A stretch of DNA of 64,000 bases from a virus (Duplodnaviria > Heunggongvirae > Uroviricota > Caudoviricetes), in IMG/VR virus record IMGVR_UViG_3300028584_001242. One strand, 5' to 3'. A program made the translations under genes and the position numbers. Of this stretch, positions 5,667-58,469 are shown piece after piece. The notes beneath the pieces were generated by a model. It was not told where the DNA came from. It saw only the letters and a program-made list of their open reading frames with translations, and did no database searches. Numbering within the stretch: the first letter of the stretch is position 1; the number at the start of each line of letters is the position of its first letter.

Positions 5667-5743
5667 TGGTGGGACTTGCAGGACTTGAACCTGCGACCTA
5701 CCGATTATGAGTCGGTTGCTCTAACCAACTGAGCTAAAGTCCC
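5667..5743 (-). tRNA. tRNA with CAU anticodon (Ile2/LAU-type or elongator Met), 77 nt, CCA encoded
   Basis: Full cloverleaf: acceptor GGGACTT/AAGTCCC, D-stem GCTC/GAGC, anticodon stem ACCGA/TCGGT with loop CTCATAA, T-loop TTCAAGT. The anticodon loop and T-stem are close to E. coli ileX as recalled from memory. Confidence 0.85.
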
Positions 5744-6033
5744 GTGGTTGGTGGCTTAGAAACGTGTCTAAACCACCCAGTATCCTCAATTATATATTCT
5801 CTATTATATTAAGAAGTAAATACCTAGCAATCTATTTCAAGCGACTTCTAATCTCTTTATCGAAGTCCCTACTTTGGATTTATTTGTATACCAAAGGTCT
5901 TAGGTTCTGCCTGAATCCGAAGGATGCCAACCTACGGAAATTTCTGTTAATCCTCTTTCTGGTTCTAGTTAAGAAGGCTCTATTTTAAGCCATCTCATCG
6001 TATTTTGCAACTATTTTTTCGTTTCTTTCAATT

Positions 6034-6118
6034 TGGTGCCCGGTGCCAGACTCGAACTGGCACTCCTTGCGGAAAGGGATTTTAAGTCCCTCGTGTCTAC
6101 CAATTTCACCAACCGGGC
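6034..6118 (-). tRNA. tRNA-Leu(UAA), 85 nt with long variable arm, CCA encoded
   Basis: Acceptor GCCCGGT/ACCGGGC. Anticodon stem AGGGA/TCCCT with loop CTTAAAA. Variable arm TTCCGCAAGGAGTG. T-arm GCCAG-TTCGAGT-CTGGC. Confidence 0.85.
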
Positions 6119-11871: not shown

Positions 11872-11898
11872 AAACAAAAAACCGCCAAGAAGGCGGTT
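11872..11898 (-). terminator. terminator ACCGCC-UUCUU-GGCGGU plus U-run (minus strand)
   Basis: It ends the tRNA-like transcription unit. Confidence 0.55.
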
Positions 11899-11917
11899 CG
11901 TTTGTATCTTAAATTAG

Positions 11918-11990
11918 GAGGACCGACTGGGACTCGAACCCAGAATTCATCCGGTTAAGGACGCTTGTTCCCGTTAAACACCACCGGCCC
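11918..11990 (-). tRNA. tRNA-like gene with a contracted 6-nt anticodon loop (possible non-canonical tRNA or pseudo-tRNA)
   Basis: Acceptor GGGCCGG/TCGGTCC with two G-U pairs, D-arm TGTT-TAACGGG-AACA, canonical T-arm CTGGG-TTCGAGT-CCCAG. The anticodon arm folds only as CGTCC-TTAACC-GGATG. It has its own consensus promoter and terminator. Confidence 0.5.
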
Positions 11991-12036
11991 ATATATTACA
12001 TGTATCAAGATTTAGTTGCTTCGTCTTGATGTGATT

Positions 12037-12065
12037 ATTATATAGAAAACAGGCGTAGCTGTCAA
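12037..12065 (-). promoter_or_regulatory. consensus sigma70 promoter module C: TTGACA-N17-TATAAT plus leader AATCACATCAAGACGAAGC
   Basis: The -35 box is at plus 12060-12065 and the -10 box at plus 12037-12042. It drives the tRNA-like gene. Confidence 0.65.
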
Positions 12066-12121
12066 CAAGATCATCAATTATTTTGAAAAGAAAATAGTCT
12101 TTTTATGATGATAAAAAGGTT

Positions 12122-12150
12122 GCATTTAACTGACAAATTTGATAGTATAG
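12122..12150 (+). promoter_or_regulatory. sigma70-like promoter TTGCAT-N17-TAGTAT, divergent from module C
   Basis: Read from the sequence. Confidence 0.4.
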
Positions 12151-12156
12151 CTTTGG

Positions 12157-12331
12157 AGATGCGGGATGAGAAGAAACTCATCTTTCAGGGTTGTTGTTTA
12201 GCATCCGATGACCATTCAGAGGCTCTGCCGACATGGTAGCTCGTCATACGCTGGTGATGTATGATGGAAAACCGCACCGCATAAAAGGAGTCCAATCTTC
12301 TTTTTGGGAGAGGCTAAATGCCTCTTTTTTT
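12157..12331 (+). ncRNA. candidate small RNA N1 (about 170 nt, GC-rich island between promoter and terminator)
   Basis: No ORF longer than 26 aa. Terminator GAGAGGC-taaat-GCCTCTT plus T8. Contains GCATCCGATGACC and UUUUUGGGAGAGG motifs shared with N2 and N3. Confidence 0.4.
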
Positions 12332-12384
12332 TCGTCTATGAAAAACTAATAAGCATAAAAAAGCCACCGAAGTAGCTTTAATCA

Positions 12385-16329: not shown

Positions 16330-16806
16330 TTAGACGGTTTCTGGAACTTCGGATTGCTGACGACGTTCAGCACGACGGTCTTCTTTGGCTTGTTTCTTGG
16401 CAATTCTTCTAGCTTCTTTGTTTTTTTTGTTCTCGACTACCAACAAGGCAAGTTCATCCAGTGTAATGTTCTGATTTTTTTTGAATGACTTGCAAACAAT
16501 ACACATTGGTTGCAAGTTGGAAAGTTCATCGTTGCCGCCATTGAATTTAGGAACAATATGATCAACAGCCATCAAAATAGCATCATCAGTGTAAACATCC
16601 CAATGCTTACCACCTTGGGGGTCAAGAGAAAAAATAAGTCGAGTGCCAACATGATTGCAATTAGGAGTTACACACGCAACACCTTTATTGACAAAGACTT
16701 TGAGACGACGATGATCTTCAAACATCTGCAAAGCAACCAAGTTACCTTCATAGACATAAGAAAAATTACAACCGGGGATTTTGTCGTCTTTTTGAAAGGT
16801 TTTCAT
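16330..16806 (-). CDS. HNH endonuclease paralog, 158 aa
   Basis: Motif DHIVPKFNGGNDELSNLQPMCIVCK. Paralog of 15823..16317. Confidence 0.8.
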   Translation of the reverse strand: MKTFQKDDKIPGCNFSYVYEGNLVALQMFEDHRRLKVFVNKGVACVTPNCNHVGTRLIFSLDPQGGKHWDVYTDDAILMAVDHIVPKFNGGNDELSNLQPMCIVCKSFKKNQNITLDELALLVVENKKNKEARRIAKKQAKEDRRAERRQQSEVPETV

Positions 16807-26815: not shown

Positions 26816-27937
26816 TTACTCGGGAATATCGACTTGTTTACGAGCAAACACCATGATAGCGGCTTGCTTGTAATCAATTTCATTGCCCGAATACTTACTG
26901 ATCAAGACATGCAGCAACAATGGAGCCACTTCTTTGGCTTTACGAGCGTAATCGCCACGTTCCAAACCTTTGTGTTCTTCATAGAAACTTTCAACGGTGC
27001 GAACAAGGTAGTGGTAGCTTTTACGGGCGTAGTCTTCTACTTCATCCAAGCGAGCCAGAATTTCAGCCAGTGGGAAGTTATCGCTGTGCGTCCGGTAATG
27101 ATACAGCGAACGAATTTCGTCCAAAATTTCGTGAAGAGTTGCTTCATAAATAACCTGACGCTCTTTCGACCGATCCTGAATATTGACCACTGCCGACATT
27201 TTCAGGTAAGGGATTGTTTTGACCTTATACATATCAGGGCCAAATTCAACTACATAACCCTCAATTTCAGGGTCATTAACGTTGAGTTCATTGATAGGGA
27301 TACGTTTCACCAAATGGGCCGCAATAACCGGGTATTTGGCAGCAAATTCAGCAGAACGAATATCGACATAAGCACCAGTGCTCATATCACGGGCTTTCAG
27401 GATATGAACAGAATAATCAGTGTATTCAATGAACACGCGGTTCTTGGGCGTGGTCAATTCCAAGTCAACCGAAACACCAGTGCGGGTCAACCGTTCAATA
27501 TCAGCATGCAACTCAGGGCTGATAGATTTTTCAACAAGGTCATAATTGGCAAAAGTTGGCTTCTTTTTGCTCTTGTAGTAAAGCGTATCGTTAACTGGCG
27601 AGATATAGCTGGTCAGCAGGGAACCATCTGGCTTCAAGTAAGCATGATCCGCTTCTTCGGGCTTGATCTTCTGAGTTTCTGGAGTTTCACCGAGCGAGAA
27701 GAATTTCTGCATTGGCAATGCCACCAGCACTGGCTCATCACCGCCCATGTAGAACATGACCCCACGGCAATCTTTAGCACCCGGAAGTTTGAATTCAGAG
27801 TGCTTTGGAATGTCATAGTTGAAGACACGGTAAGTCCCGCCGTCTACTGCTGAGGTTTCATCCCCGTATTTAAAAGACCCCGGATTAGTAACCAACAGGT
27901 TCATCAGTTGGGCATACAGTTCTTGTTGATAAGTCAT
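26816..27937 (-). CDS. RNA ligase, Rnl1 family (T4 gene 63-like), about 373 aa
   Basis: Motif I KPDGSLL. The N-terminal block YRVFNYDIP...CRGVMFYMGGDEP...QKFFSLGE is colinear with T4 Rnl1 as recalled from memory. Confidence 0.8.
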   Translation of the reverse strand: MTYQQELYAQLMNLLVTNPGSFKYGDETSAVDGGTYRVFNYDIPKHSEFKLPGAKDCRGVMFYMGGDEPVLVALPMQKFFSLGETPETQKIKPEEADHAYLKPDGSLLTSYISPVNDTLYYKSKKKPTFANYDLVEKSISPELHADIERLTRTGVSVDLELTTPKNRVFIEYTDYSVHILKARDMSTGAYVDIRSAEFAAKYPVIAAHLVKRIPINELNVNDPEIEGYVVEFGPDMYKVKTIPYLKMSAVVNIQDRSKERQVIYEATLHEILDEIRSLYHYRTHSDNFPLAEILARLDEVEDYARKSYHYLVRTVESFYEEHKGLERGDYARKAKEVAPLLLHVLISKYSGNEIDYKQAAIMVFARKQVDIPE

Positions 27938-27994
27938 GTGAATCTCCACAATTAAATTTGTCTGAATGTATTATATCAAAAACTGATTTTTAAT

Positions 27995-28906: not shown

Positions 28907-30028
28907 TTAAACGGGCGGGGACAAGTCGCCAAGCTCAATTTGTTCCAACGACCAATCCACCAGATGGTTTTTAGAGTAGTGATACAAGTAGTCGTTTTTG
29001 TGACCACGAATCGCCCCCATAACAAAACCAAAGTGTTTATGGCCTTTGAGCTGAATTGCAGCAGCTTTCACGTCAACACCTTTGAATTCAGCAGCAATAT
29101 TATCAACTTCTTTCGACAACGCTTCAATCGAAGCTTTGATAGCGTCATTGATTCGATAAATCTCACTCAAATCAGCCGTTGGCGAATTCAGCGACAAATA
29201 AGCGATGTAATCATCAAGTTTTTCTTCAACCACCAACCGAGCAATATCACGCTCCCGAACAAAGCTAACCGCATGATGGAGGTTCATATACCATTTGGTT
29301 TTGATTTTGATCATGTTACCGTTAACGAATTGAATAACATAGCCTTCAATCCCTTCAACAGTGTTCAGCGACTTCAACAGGGAAGCCAAATCAAATTCTT
29401 CACCAAACAGAGGCTTGTTAACAGGAATATCAAACAACAACGCCAGTTGGTCTTTTTCAGCAGGCATTAAGTAATCGCCTGTGATGTTGTGACGAACATG
29501 AAGCAATGTCATGTTGTCTTCGTCATAACGCAAAACGATACGATGTTTTGGCGAAGTAAATTCAAAAATAGGGGTCAGTTGGGCCTGAGAGCAATATTTA
29601 GTGAACTCGTAGTATTTCTGGTTGCGAGACACAAAGCCTTCTGCCGAAACAGCCACATCCGATTTGAACGACTTCTTGGATTTAGCAAAGAATTCGCCTT
29701 TGAACAGCCCTGTGGTAATCATGGAGCCATCCATTTTATCAAACCCGGCTACCATCGTGCTCCAATCCAAAACGGCTGGCTGGACTTCTGCCCGCTCTGC
29801 CAAGTTAAAGAATTTGTGCAATGGACGCGACAGGATTTTACCATTGTCGTCAAAAGTAATACCGCGAGCTTCTTTTTCAACCGGAGTGTTGAAAGAGTCA
29901 CCGTTGCTGATGTTGTAGCAAACGATATCGGCACCGTTATCCTGTTTATTAACAGAAATATAGGCACGGTCTTTGATATGAGGAATCATATCATCAAGGG
30001 TTTCAATACGCGGGAAGATGCTGGACAT
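28907..30028 (-). CDS. RNA ligase, Rnl1 family, second paralog, 373 aa
   Basis: Motif I KMDGSMI, block ARGITFDDNGKILSRPLHKFFNLAE. Same architecture as 26816..27937. Confidence 0.75.
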   Translation of the reverse strand: MSSIFPRIETLDDMIPHIKDRAYISVNKQDNGADIVCYNISNGDSFNTPVEKEARGITFDDNGKILSRPLHKFFNLAERAEVQPAVLDWSTMVAGFDKMDGSMITTGLFKGEFFAKSKKSFKSDVAVSAEGFVSRNQKYYEFTKYCSQAQLTPIFEFTSPKHRIVLRYDEDNMTLLHVRHNITGDYLMPAEKDQLALLFDIPVNKPLFGEEFDLASLLKSLNTVEGIEGYVIQFVNGNMIKIKTKWYMNLHHAVSFVRERDIARLVVEEKLDDYIAYLSLNSPTADLSEIYRINDAIKASIEALSKEVDNIAAEFKGVDVKAAAIQLKGHKHFGFVMGAIRGHKNDYLYHYSKNHLVDWSLEQIELGDLSPPV

Positions 30029-49406: not shown

Positions 49407-49562
49407 TATCGTATTCTCCTAATATTTAGTTGTTAACAACACAATCTAGATTGCATTAGTTGCTTTAATTATAATGACATAAAGTATTAATAATTTACCA
49501 CAGTGATGTAAAAAGTCAATAAATAATGAGAATAGTTATCATTACACCACAAAAAATAGTAT

Positions 49563-49590
49563 AAAAAAACCACTCGAAAGTGGTCTTAGT
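49563..49590 (-). terminator. terminator ACCACU-UUCG-AGUGGU plus U7 (minus strand)
   Basis: It ends the unit formed by basic peptide 3 and the tRNA-like gene. Confidence 0.6.
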
Positions 49591-49597
49591 GTATAAA

Positions 49598-49670
49598 GGC
49601 TGTATGATGGGACTCGAACCCACGACTACCGTTTTTCGACGGAGTTCTGCCGACTGAACTACAAACAGCC
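49598..49670 (-). tRNA. tRNA-like gene with a contracted 6-nt anticodon loop, CCA not encoded
   Basis: D-arm GTTC-AGTCGGCA-GAAC (A14, G18/G19), T-arm GTGGG-TTCGAGT-CCCAT, 6/7-bp acceptor. The anticodon arm folds only as CCGT-CGAAAA-ACGG. It lies immediately downstream of basic-peptide gene 3. Confidence 0.45.
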
Positions 49671-49686
49671 AAAACTGTAAAATTCT

Positions 49687-49818
49687 TTATTCGTTAATGT
49701 GACGATCACGACGCTTCTTTCGCCAGTTCTTGTCTTGCTCATGAGTTTTTGCTTTTTCTGTGTCACGTTTTTTACCACCACGGAAACGTTCTGTTGCGTC
49801 ACCAAATGAACCTTGCAT
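49687..49818 (-). CDS. small highly basic peptide, paralog 3 (43 aa, MQGSFGDATERFRGGKKRDTEKAKTHEQDKNWRKKRRDRHINE)
   Basis: In-frame internal ATG of listed ORF 49687..49869. A TGTATAAT -10 box lies about 30 nt upstream. Confidence 0.5.
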   Translation of the reverse strand: MQGSFGDATERFRGGKKRDTEKAKTHEQDKNWRKKRRDRHINE

Positions 49819-49928
49819 AATATAAATACCTTTGTTTATTAGACTTTTATTATACATCAAAAAGCACATTAAGTAAATAGCAAAAATGATATTTTTTAAA
49901 AACTTTTTAATGGTCTAAAAATATCCCA

Positions 49929-58144: not shown

Positions 58145-58433
58145 ATGTTTTTTTAGAATTAATGAAATTGCATTAAAGAAAACTTCATTGAAGGATTTCT
58201 CTAATACAATCTGATCAAGTCAGATTGCAGAGCAGTCGCTACCTAACTCAAGTGCCGAAGTCTTGCGATCCTTTCTGCTAAGAAAGTTAACGGCGTTTTC
58301 CCCTTGCAGTCCCCAATGGTCGAGGCCAATCCCATCAGAATGAGTGTCCGCACAAAGACCTCCCAATGCTCCCAATGTCAAAAATATGACAACAGTTGTG
58401 CCTTACGAGAACATAAATGGATCTCGTATCGGA
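58145..58433 (-). ncRNA. candidate small RNA N3 (about 320 nt including terminator, GC-rich island)
   Basis: Between the perfect consensus promoter and the terminator. The longest ORF has no SD. Contains GCAUCCGAUAC, CAUUGGGAGCAUUGGGAGG, and hairpin CAAUCUGA-ucaag-UCAGAUUG. Confidence 0.45.
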
Positions 58434-58440
58434 TGCCACA

Positions 58441-58469
58441 ATTATACGACAAAATGAGAAAGGTGTCAA
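58441..58469 (-). promoter_or_regulatory. perfect consensus sigma70 promoter TTGACA-N17-TATAAT
   Basis: The -35 box is at plus 58464-58469 and the -10 box at plus 58441-58446. Confidence 0.65.

Follow-up and report, generated by a model that had tools for sequence, protein, structure and literature searches.

A 64,000-nucleotide (nt) stretch of DNA deposited in IMG/VR as the viral record IMGVR_UViG_3300028584_001242 (the whole stretch is hereafter referred to as the window) contains a small cassette in which a perfect sigma-70-type promoter and an intrinsic terminator flank a transfer RNA (tRNA)-like element with a 6-nt anticodon loop. This element, at positions 11990-11919, is hereafter referred to as e1. 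Its expression signals and its 3' half are conserved, and a second tRNA-like element, at 49598-49668 (hereafter referred to as e2), has an anticodon arm of the same reduced length that seems to have been retained under purifying selection. Our preferred explanation, which we hold tentatively, is that e1 is an expressed, non-decoding tRNA mimic that would bind a tRNA-recognising protein. A tRNA gene in decay is a close rival of this explanation and ranks directly behind it.

Anatomy of the e1 cassette

All parts of the cassette were found on the minus strand, at the positions given in a preliminary description of the window:

12065-12060 (-): -35 hexamer TTGACA, from a consensus scan; identical in 4/4 assemblies
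12042-12037 (-): -10 hexamer TATAAT, after a 17-nt spacer, from a consensus scan
12030-11991 (-): 5' leader of about 40 nt, with a hairpin AUCAAGA-N13-UCUUGAU (12030-12004) in the minimum-free-energy fold of the transcript
11990-11919 (-): e1, a 72-nt cloverleaf; ARAGORN tRNA-???, RNAfold cloverleaf in both alleles
11948-11963 (-): anticodon arm of e1, 16 nt rather than 17, with a stem CGUCC/GGAUG of 5 base pairs (bp) and a 6-nt loop UUAACC at 11958-11953
11918-11900 (-): 3' trailer CCUAAUUUAAGAUACAAAC, 19 nt, AU-rich, unpaired in the RNA fold
11899-11871 (-): intrinsic terminator GAACCGCC-UUCUU-GGCGGUUU followed by a U-tract, from a terminator scan

The promoter, TTGACA-N17-TATAAT (12065-12037), matched the sigma-70 consensus at 12 of 12 positions; two perfect promoters of this kind were observed in the 64-kilobase (kb) window, versus 0.07 expected from shuffles. 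As far as motif matches go, the unit has the features by which sigma-70 promoters and intrinsic terminators are defined (both hexamers, a 17-nt spacer, a hairpin and a U-tract). Together with the cloverleaf between them, the 12/12 promoter and the terminator bear out the earlier view of this locus as a self-contained unit. Judging from spacing only, transcription would start at about 12030-12032, some 40 nt before e1. The end of the -10 hexamer lies 46 nt before the start of e1, which corrects the distance of about 35 nt given previously. The base directly 5' of e1 is a U.

The acceptor stem of e1 comprises 7 bp (GGGCCGG/UCGGUCC, including G3:U70 and G7:U66) and the T arm is fully canonical (CUGGG-UUCGAGU-CCCAG). 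U8, the GG pair, the T loop and the T stem are all present, and the D-loop contains GGG. The D arm itself is degenerate, with U rather than A at position 14 and a G-A mismatch at 10:25, and RNAfold favoured a different 5-bp D hairpin. The statement that all arms other than the anticodon arm are canonical thus holds for the acceptor and T arms, but not for the D arm. The discriminator base is a U, followed by CCU instead of CCA.

With an anticodon arm of 16 nt, in e1 as in e2, only a 6-nt or an 8-nt loop is possible. In e1, inspection ruled out any register with a 7-nt loop, the sole alternative being a 4-bp stem with an 8-nt loop. Whether given the whole transcript, the isolated body or either allele (see below), RNAfold returned the cloverleaf and its 6-nt loop. 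ARAGORN called e1 at 11917-11990 as a tRNA-??? and gave it an anticodon of 2 bases, ‘aa’, its way of denoting a 6-nt loop. Direct reading of the arm, ARAGORN and RNAfold therefore concur on the short loop first proposed. In 951 kb of other DNA, ARAGORN made no ‘tRNA-???’ call other than on copies of e1 and e2.

Alleles of e1 and distribution of changes

Relatives of e1 were located by exact look-up of the neighbouring protein of 257 amino acids (aa). Three further contigs carried the cassette, one of them near-identical to the window and two with a second allele. The loop sequence UUAACC was invariant in these four independent assemblies and two alleles; the short loop is therefore no sequencing error, an indel was rejected as its cause, and the 7-nt loop in homologues that the preliminary description had named as grounds for refutation did not appear. 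The two alleles differed at 33 of 401 aligned positions, within flanking DNA 98-99% identical, and the changes were distributed as follows:

Promoter: 0/29 (0%)
Leader: 5/46 (10.9%)
e1, tRNA positions 1-26: 6/27 (22%)
e1, anticodon arm: 1/16 (6%; G43A)
e1, variable loop, T arm and 3' acceptor: 2/29 (7%)
Trailer and terminator (11918-11871): 0/48 (0%)
Spacer past the terminator: 10/45 (22%)

The expression signals and the 3' half of e1 are conserved. From the anticodon arm to the terminator there were three changes in 93 nt, as against 9.7% elsewhere in the patch (Poisson P=0.02), and the 63 nt that begin with the T loop and close with the terminator were unchanged. This conserved 3' block is bordered on both sides by 22% divergence. 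The leader hairpin kept its stem and varied in its loop. Nine substitutions were counted in the 72 positions of the e1 body, five of them in stems: three pairs were kept in the second allele (G3:U70 to A:U, G7:U66 to A:U and U13:A22 to U:G) and two terminal pairs (27:43 and 49:65) were broken.

The presence of alleles 12% apart within near-identical flanks suggests fast evolution or, alternatively, exchange with similar cassettes from an unsampled pool. Diversity-generating, adenine-specific mutagenesis was considered and rejected, as the substitutions were mostly G-to-A changes and pyrimidine transitions and were not specific to A.

A second element with a short anticodon arm

The following features were annotated around e2:

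49598-49668 (-): e2, tRNA-like element; ARAGORN tRNA-???, Rfam tRNA model 42.9 bits
49687-49818 (-): very basic open reading frame (ORF) of 43 aa (MQGSFGDATERFRGGKK...), directly upstream of e2; no Pfam family

A second element of the same kind had been announced. It does exist, with a 6-nt loop (CGAAAA), but it does not stand alone: e2 lies between the stop codon of the 43-aa ORF and the terminator of that ORF (49587-49566). It scored above the gathering score of the tRNA model, with 42.9 bits in the window and 34.3-44.3 bits in relatives. Both the D and the T arm are canonical; position 26 is missing. The anticodon arm again has 16 nt (UCCGU-CGAAAA-ACGGU), and the loop reads CUAAAA in lineages whose neighbouring protein is 73% identical. 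The acceptor helix can be extended to 9 bp (49596-49670).

The element was conserved in several related loci (L100, L101, L104 and L111-L114) while its flanks diverged. The length of the arm was unchanged both in near relatives and in the lineages with the 73%-identical protein. In comparisons with the latter, 9-10 of the 73 positions of the body had changed (12%), as against 14-15 of the 20 positions of the leader (70%) and 6-7 of the 14 positions of the trailer (50%); at this divergence, much deeper than that between the e1 alleles, the flanks were no longer alignable. The pairing was largely preserved, with 92.5% of pair cells paired (6 sequences). The extended acceptor displayed one two-sided change, from G:C to A:U, and three one-sided changes that stayed paired. 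In a shuffle test of the pair score, based on 6 sequences only, 43 of 500 shuffles reached the observed value. In one allele (L104:56-346, corresponding to window positions 49540-49830), a U-U mismatch in the acceptor was replaced by C-C, so that both bases changed and the pair remained non-standard.

The ORF upstream of e2 was called at the same position in every related locus covering it, even in a locus without e2. It has 43 aa in most loci and 60 aa in L113 and L114, consistent with an upstream alternative start such as that present in the window. In the relative without e2, at 70% protein identity, the ORF was joined straight to the terminator. Together with the retention of the body and of the short arm while the flanks diverged, which argues for purifying selection, this comparison indicates that e2 is an accessory insertion under purifying selection. 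The strongest argument for function can thus be drawn from e2 and not from e1; it raises the prior for e1 without proving its function, and suggests that RNAs of this kind are actively maintained in this genome. No homologue of e2 was found in IMG/VR and INPHARED other than one weak match (E-value 4e-3), to a Vibrio phage tRNA-Trp gene.

Evidence bearing on a role of e1 in translation

The Rfam tRNA model (RF00005) scored e1 at 26.4 bits, below its gathering score of 29, and e1 was absent from the scan at gathering threshold. For the second allele (L022), no Rfam tRNA match was obtained at E≤1 and ARAGORN made no call. In no allele of e1 or e2 did the anticodon arm conform to the canonical definition (17 nt, 7-nt loop, U33, 3-base anticodon and purine 37), and position 37 of e1 is a C rather than a purine. 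Every genuine tRNA found in the genome or in its relatives (Met-CAU, Leu-UAA, Leu-CAA and Arg-UCU) has a gene-encoded CCA end, which is lacking in e1 (U-CCU) and in e2 (CCU or UCG, inside the extended helix). G3:U70 is limited to the window allele of e1, the other allele having A3:U70, and no aminoacylation identity element was common to both alleles. Given the short arm, the lack of A14, G10:C25, R37 and CCA, and the lack of a shared identity element, e1 is most likely not a working decoder and probably stays out of translation. The earlier proposal of a non-canonical decoding tRNA thus appears unlikely, in view of the absence of an encoded CCA and of any conserved identity element. A decoy or a tRNA-derived regulator, the other roles proposed, is conceivable. 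The genome's own Met, Leu and Arg tRNAs were considered as a possible source of e1 and rejected, as e1 displayed no special resemblance to any of them.

Distribution and origin of the cassette

Where the neighbouring protein of a relative is 81-83% identical, the 320 nt containing the cassette give way to about 100 nt that bear no relation to them. The cassette was also absent at 52-55% protein identity and, in a relative at 71%, the whole intergenic region was missing. This pattern of absence indicates that the cassette is a recent insertion in one sub-lineage. The poor conservation that had been named as a sign of a decaying gene was therefore encountered in part: relatives with 52-83% protein identity lack the cassette and the two alleles differ at 9 of 72 positions.

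A search of INPHARED with e1 (megablast and blastn) detected only similarity in the T arm to T5-like tRNA-Lys genes. With these genes, the 3' half of e1 shares 86% identity over 50 nt, including the run UUAACCGGA. This is suggestive of descent from a tRNA-Lys but does not establish it, since unrelated tRNA-Ala and tRNA-Leu genes have the same T arm and acceptor. A protein-anchored search of IMG/VR for the e1 locus returned nothing. Pattern-scan matches to e1 in IMG/VR were rejected as chance matches in coding sequences, ordinary Ala, Leu and Lys tRNAs or unrelated terminator hairpins, and a match from GTDB/JGI was merely the long variable arm of a Roizmanbacteria tRNA.

The 15-mer of the e1 anticodon arm, CGTCCTTAACCGGAT, was also present in L031, L032, L037, L040 and about 15 other IMG/VR loci, where it formed terminator hairpins (GCCCCGTCC-TTAACC-GGATGGGGC followed by a T-tract). 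The contigs concerned are mostly 64-72 kb long. The number of matches equals the chance expectation for a 15-mer, and this is therefore probably a coincidence.

Possible mode of action and alternative explanations

If e1 acts as a non-decoding mimic, the sigma-70 promoter would drive a transcript of about 160 nt, which ribonuclease P (RNase P) and 3' trimming would process into a stable, L-shaped tRNA-derived RNA; cleavage by RNase P may be expected from the U preceding the start and the intact acceptor/T-arm helix. Such an RNA would retain the acceptor/T-arm ‘elbow’ recognised by tRNA-binding proteins and would present an unreadable anticodon loop lacking a normal wobble position, so that an anticodon nuclease may fail to cut it in the usual way. 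With its elbow kept and a loop that may escape normal cutting, e1 could bind and titrate a tRNA-recognising enzyme, the leading candidate being an anticodon nuclease or another tRNA-targeting or tRNA-processing protein. Both loops resemble NAA-anticodon loops minus the wobble base (UU^AACC in e1 and CU^AAAA in e2). A wobble-less loop is the shape that would result from RloC-type wobble excision followed by ligation, and provides a possible lead towards a role as decoy or product mimic.

Several observations weigh against this explanation. The cassette is restricted to the closest relatives, and no homologue of e1 was found by pattern scans of IMG/VR, JGI metagenomes and GTDB genomes. Its expression is deduced from consensus motifs only. 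The 5' half of e1 diverges as fast as the neighbouring spacer (22% in both cases). There is no significant covariation between the two alleles, in which three pairs were kept, two were broken and no two-sided change occurred, a split of stem changes close to that expected of neutral transitions. The loops of e1 and e2 have only the central AA in common. Among the 93 ORFs of the window, the scans detected neither an anticodon nuclease nor a polynucleotide kinase-phosphatase, nor any known defence gene. Two RnlA-type ligases are encoded in the window, but 15-18 kb from e1; with no kinase-phosphatase partner detected, the ‘neighbouring RNA-repair genes’ of the preliminary description overstate the link. 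Finally, the gene content recalls a very large phage (its early or accessory region), whereas the replicon size does not, and the phage status of the genome is uncertain.

Many of these points are equally those of a decaying pseudo-tRNA, that is, a tRNA gene acquired as a cassette with its own promoter and terminator that lost one nucleotide of the anticodon loop and is now drifting, its signals surviving for lack of time. This explanation is entirely possible and would account for the 9/72 differences in the body, the divergence of the 5' half to the level of the adjacent spacer, the two helix-terminal pairs broken in one allele without significant covariation, the sub-threshold score of e1 and the failure of ARAGORN and Rfam to find the second allele, the loss of several universal tRNA positions and the very narrow lineage concerned. 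The intact hexamers are of little help in this respect, as zero changes in 12 positions is unsurprising at about 10% neutral divergence (P about 0.3). Simple decay is less easily reconciled with the unchanged 63 nt running from T loop through terminator and a single change in the anticodon arm, with 22% divergence on either side (P=0.02), with the rarity of 12/12 promoters in the window, or with e2, in which a short arm appears compatible with long-term purifying selection.

The strict conservation of the trailer and terminator (0/48 changes), among the most conserved parts of the cassette, while the 5' half of the tRNA varies, would also fit a scaffold, in which the tRNA shape serves only for RNase P and 3' processing and for stability. 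The active part would then be the trailer and terminator hairpin, as an Hfq-type small RNA, or the leader hairpin, and e2 would define or stabilise the 3' end of the messenger RNA (mRNA) of the 43-aa ORF. The trailer is single-stranded and AU-rich and is followed by a hairpin and a U-tail, and e2 does lie in the 3' region of an mRNA, between stop codon and terminator. We nevertheless find this explanation doubtful: no site complementary to the trailer was found in the window at ≤3 mismatches, the trailer of e2 is 50% diverged while its body is kept, the leader loop of e1 varies between alleles, and the short anticodon arm of both elements is left without an explanation. A non-canonical decoder, which after CCA addition and charging would read a doublet (AA with UU) or, through an 8-nt loop formed by opening the closing pair, a quadruplet, with programmed frameshifting as the outcome, is very improbable. 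It would be in keeping with the AA at the centre of both loops, an even arm length allowing a 6-nt or an 8-nt loop, the alanine identity pair G3:U70 of the window allele and an e1 end, UCC-U, only one step from UCCA. Against it stand the lack of an encoded CCA, which all true tRNAs here possess, the loss of G3:U70 in the other allele, the absence of A14, G10:C25 and R37 from e1, an acceptor helix of e2 that covers the place of the discriminator and CCA, with a compensatory change supporting the pairing, and a 3' tail of e2 that is not conserved. We know of no established natural decoder with a 6-nt anticodon loop, and a literature search on 6-nt anticodon loops yielded nothing relevant.

The preferred explanation, an expressed mimic that stays out of decoding, can be taken a step further. 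In that case, this uncultured, ORFan-rich genome of about 1.85 megabases, be it that of a gammaproteobacterium or of a very large element hosted by one, would maintain a class of gene-encoded ‘wobble-less’ tRNA mimics: cloverleaves whose elbow is intact, whose anticodon arm lacks exactly one nucleotide and which have no CCA. Acting as decoys that resist cleavage or by mimicking a reaction product, they would inhibit anticodon nucleases (of the RloC, PrrC or PARIS type) or some other defence or processing protein that binds tRNA. Such an RNA-based counter-defence would differ from the known ‘replacement tRNA’ strategy. In this specific form, we regard the proposal as unlikely. The known viral answers to tRNA-cutting defences are tRNA repair or a resistant working copy; a gene-encoded, non-decoding tRNA look-alike kept by selection would, if real, constitute a third strategy, that of an RNA decoy, and would imply that at least some ‘tRNA-???’ calls in large mobile genomes are more than junk. 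The persistence of an anticodon arm one base short in e2, apparently under purifying selection, is unexpected for a tRNA-derived gene. If e1 is merely a decaying tRNA gene, the finding is an ordinary one.

Genomic context

The phage context had been assumed in the preliminary description. The window, for which no relatives were found in INPHARED or IMG/VR, proved to be part of a JGI contig of 1,851,360 bp; in other metagenomes, sister contigs of 1.84-1.92 megabases recur. In the NCBIfam search, 85 of the 93 window ORFs had no match. Family matches identified two RNA ligases:

26816-27949: RNA ligase, T4 RnlA family
28907-30028: RNA ligase, T4 RnlA family

The other family-matched ORFs encode an ADP-ribose-type NUDIX hydrolase, CinA/PncC, an oligoribonuclease, HNH endonucleases and a BdlA-like PAS chemotaxis protein. 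The best phage match of a window RNA ligase was from a Ralstonia jumbo phage (42% identity), and the nearest cultured homologues of the chemotaxis protein were gammaproteobacterial (44-48% identity). Gene order, including the chemotaxis gene, was kept in loci with as little as 52% protein identity. Among the window ORFs, no virion gene was detected, and the sole match of a PADLOC scan of the window was a DEDDh exonuclease. In INPHARED there was no DNA similarity around e1 and no match to a 420-aa ORF, and only distant matches to the RNA ligases were found; IMG/VR contained no relative of the protein neighbouring e1. The tRNA set, Arg-UCU, Leu-UAA and Met/Ile-CAU, is of a kind typical of phages. 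Along with this set, the many ORFs without a family match, the ligases with their jumbo-phage match, and the NUDIX, CinA and HNH genes, which are usual in large phages, speak for a phage context; the contig size, the lack of virion genes and of relatives in INPHARED and IMG/VR, and the syntenic chemotaxis gene speak against one. The genome could be that of a bacterium with a large conserved island, or something stranger.

The tRNA cluster (window 5667-6118; L106:13048-13297; L108:12642-13453) varies in composition, with Met-CAU and Leu-UAA in the window and Arg-UCU or Leu-CAA added elsewhere. A set of this kind is typical of tRNAs that phages carry for AT-rich codons, and every member encodes CCA. 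Adjacent HNH endonuclease genes (window 16330-16806; L087-L091 and L106) number from one to three among close relatives, and this variation suggests active homing or turnover in the region.

Two other non-coding regions were noted. Divergent from e1 lies a conserved unit resembling a structured RNA (12119-12335, +); its promoter reads TTGCAT-17-TAGTAT and its terminator lies at 12306-12328. Even where relatives share only 52-55% identity in the flanking protein, the unit keeps 76-86% identity, with an invariant 40-nt core and one hairpin in which 5 pairs carry compensatory changes. No conserved ORF was found in this unit, nor any match to it in Rfam, IMG/VR or INPHARED. The other perfect TTGACA-N17-TATAAT promoter (58469-58441, -) precedes a GC-rich stretch of about 250 nt that is apparently non-coding and extends to the next ORF; this region (58190-58469), on the minus strand, may be another small-RNA gene.

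Comparison with known systems

Anticodon nucleases, of which RloC excises the wobble base, are countered both by phage tRNA genes and by tRNA repair (PMC10264068, PMC11464382, PMC11555353, PMC2610378, PMC7824862). Phage tRNAs that evade such nucleases include T5 tRNA-Lys, which counters PARIS AriB, and the T5 tRNAs countering PrrC and retron PtuAB (PMC10264068, PMC11464382, PMC11555353). Like them, e1 is a tRNA-shaped gene near phage-type accessory genes, with change concentrated in the anticodon loop. However, these tRNAs are charged, decode with a real anticodon and have a loop of 7 nt, whereas the loop of e1 has 6 nt, its D arm is degenerate and CCA is missing. With its 6-nt loop and no usable anticodon, e1 falls outside the definition of a nuclease-evading phage tRNA (PMC10264068, PMC11464382). 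The protein-RNA anti-CRISPR AcrIIIA1 was also considered as a parallel and rejected, as it concerns host tRNA fragments and not an encoded mimic.

A tRNA from which RloC has excised the wobble base, and which is then ligated (PMC2610378), a scheme also discussed for jumbo phages (PMC7824862), would be one anticodon-loop nucleotide short and would have a 6-nt loop, as do e1 and e2. The e1 loop UU^AACC and the e2 allele CU^AAAA can both be read as Y-U-(missing 34)-A-A-N-N, as in the excised product, and RnlA-type ligases are encoded in the same region as e1, a further point shared with the excision and ligation scheme. Nevertheless, a wobble-excised tRNA is a damage intermediate, whereas e1 is a gene, and position 37 of e1 is a C. 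No RloC or PrrC homologue was detected in the window. We therefore treat the likeness as a lead and not as a test.

The tRNA-linked spacer small RNAs, such as the E. coli 3'ETS-leuZ, resemble the 3' part of the cassette, in that a single-stranded, conserved trailer and a terminator hairpin lie directly 3' of a tRNA-shaped module. In that system, the tRNA is functional and the target of the spacer and its binding to Hfq are known, whereas no target of the e1 trailer was found in the window. The tRNA pseudogenes and ‘tRNA-Undet/Other’ calls of large phage genomes share with e1 an abnormal anticodon loop, a sub-threshold score and a narrow distribution. They differ from it in that e1 has a dedicated 12/12 promoter, a terminator of its own and conserved 3' parts, and e2 appears to be under selection with the defect.

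There remain the RNAs that are tRNA-shaped and processed like tRNAs but do not decode, such as mascRNA (RF01684), the YrlA tRNA-like domain of bacterial Y RNAs, the T4 stable RNAs C and D, and the tRNA-Other of Bacillus cereus. The mascRNA is released by cleavage from the 3' end of a longer RNA, as e2 would be; its model scored e1 at 21.3 bits, against a gathering score of 42.5. The Y RNAs have a Ro-binding stem in place of the anticodon arm. To our knowledge, no class of non-decoding tRNA-like RNA is defined by a 6-nt anticodon loop. Although a member of none of these classes, e1 is, in its probable way of working, most like the non-decoding tRNA-like RNAs.

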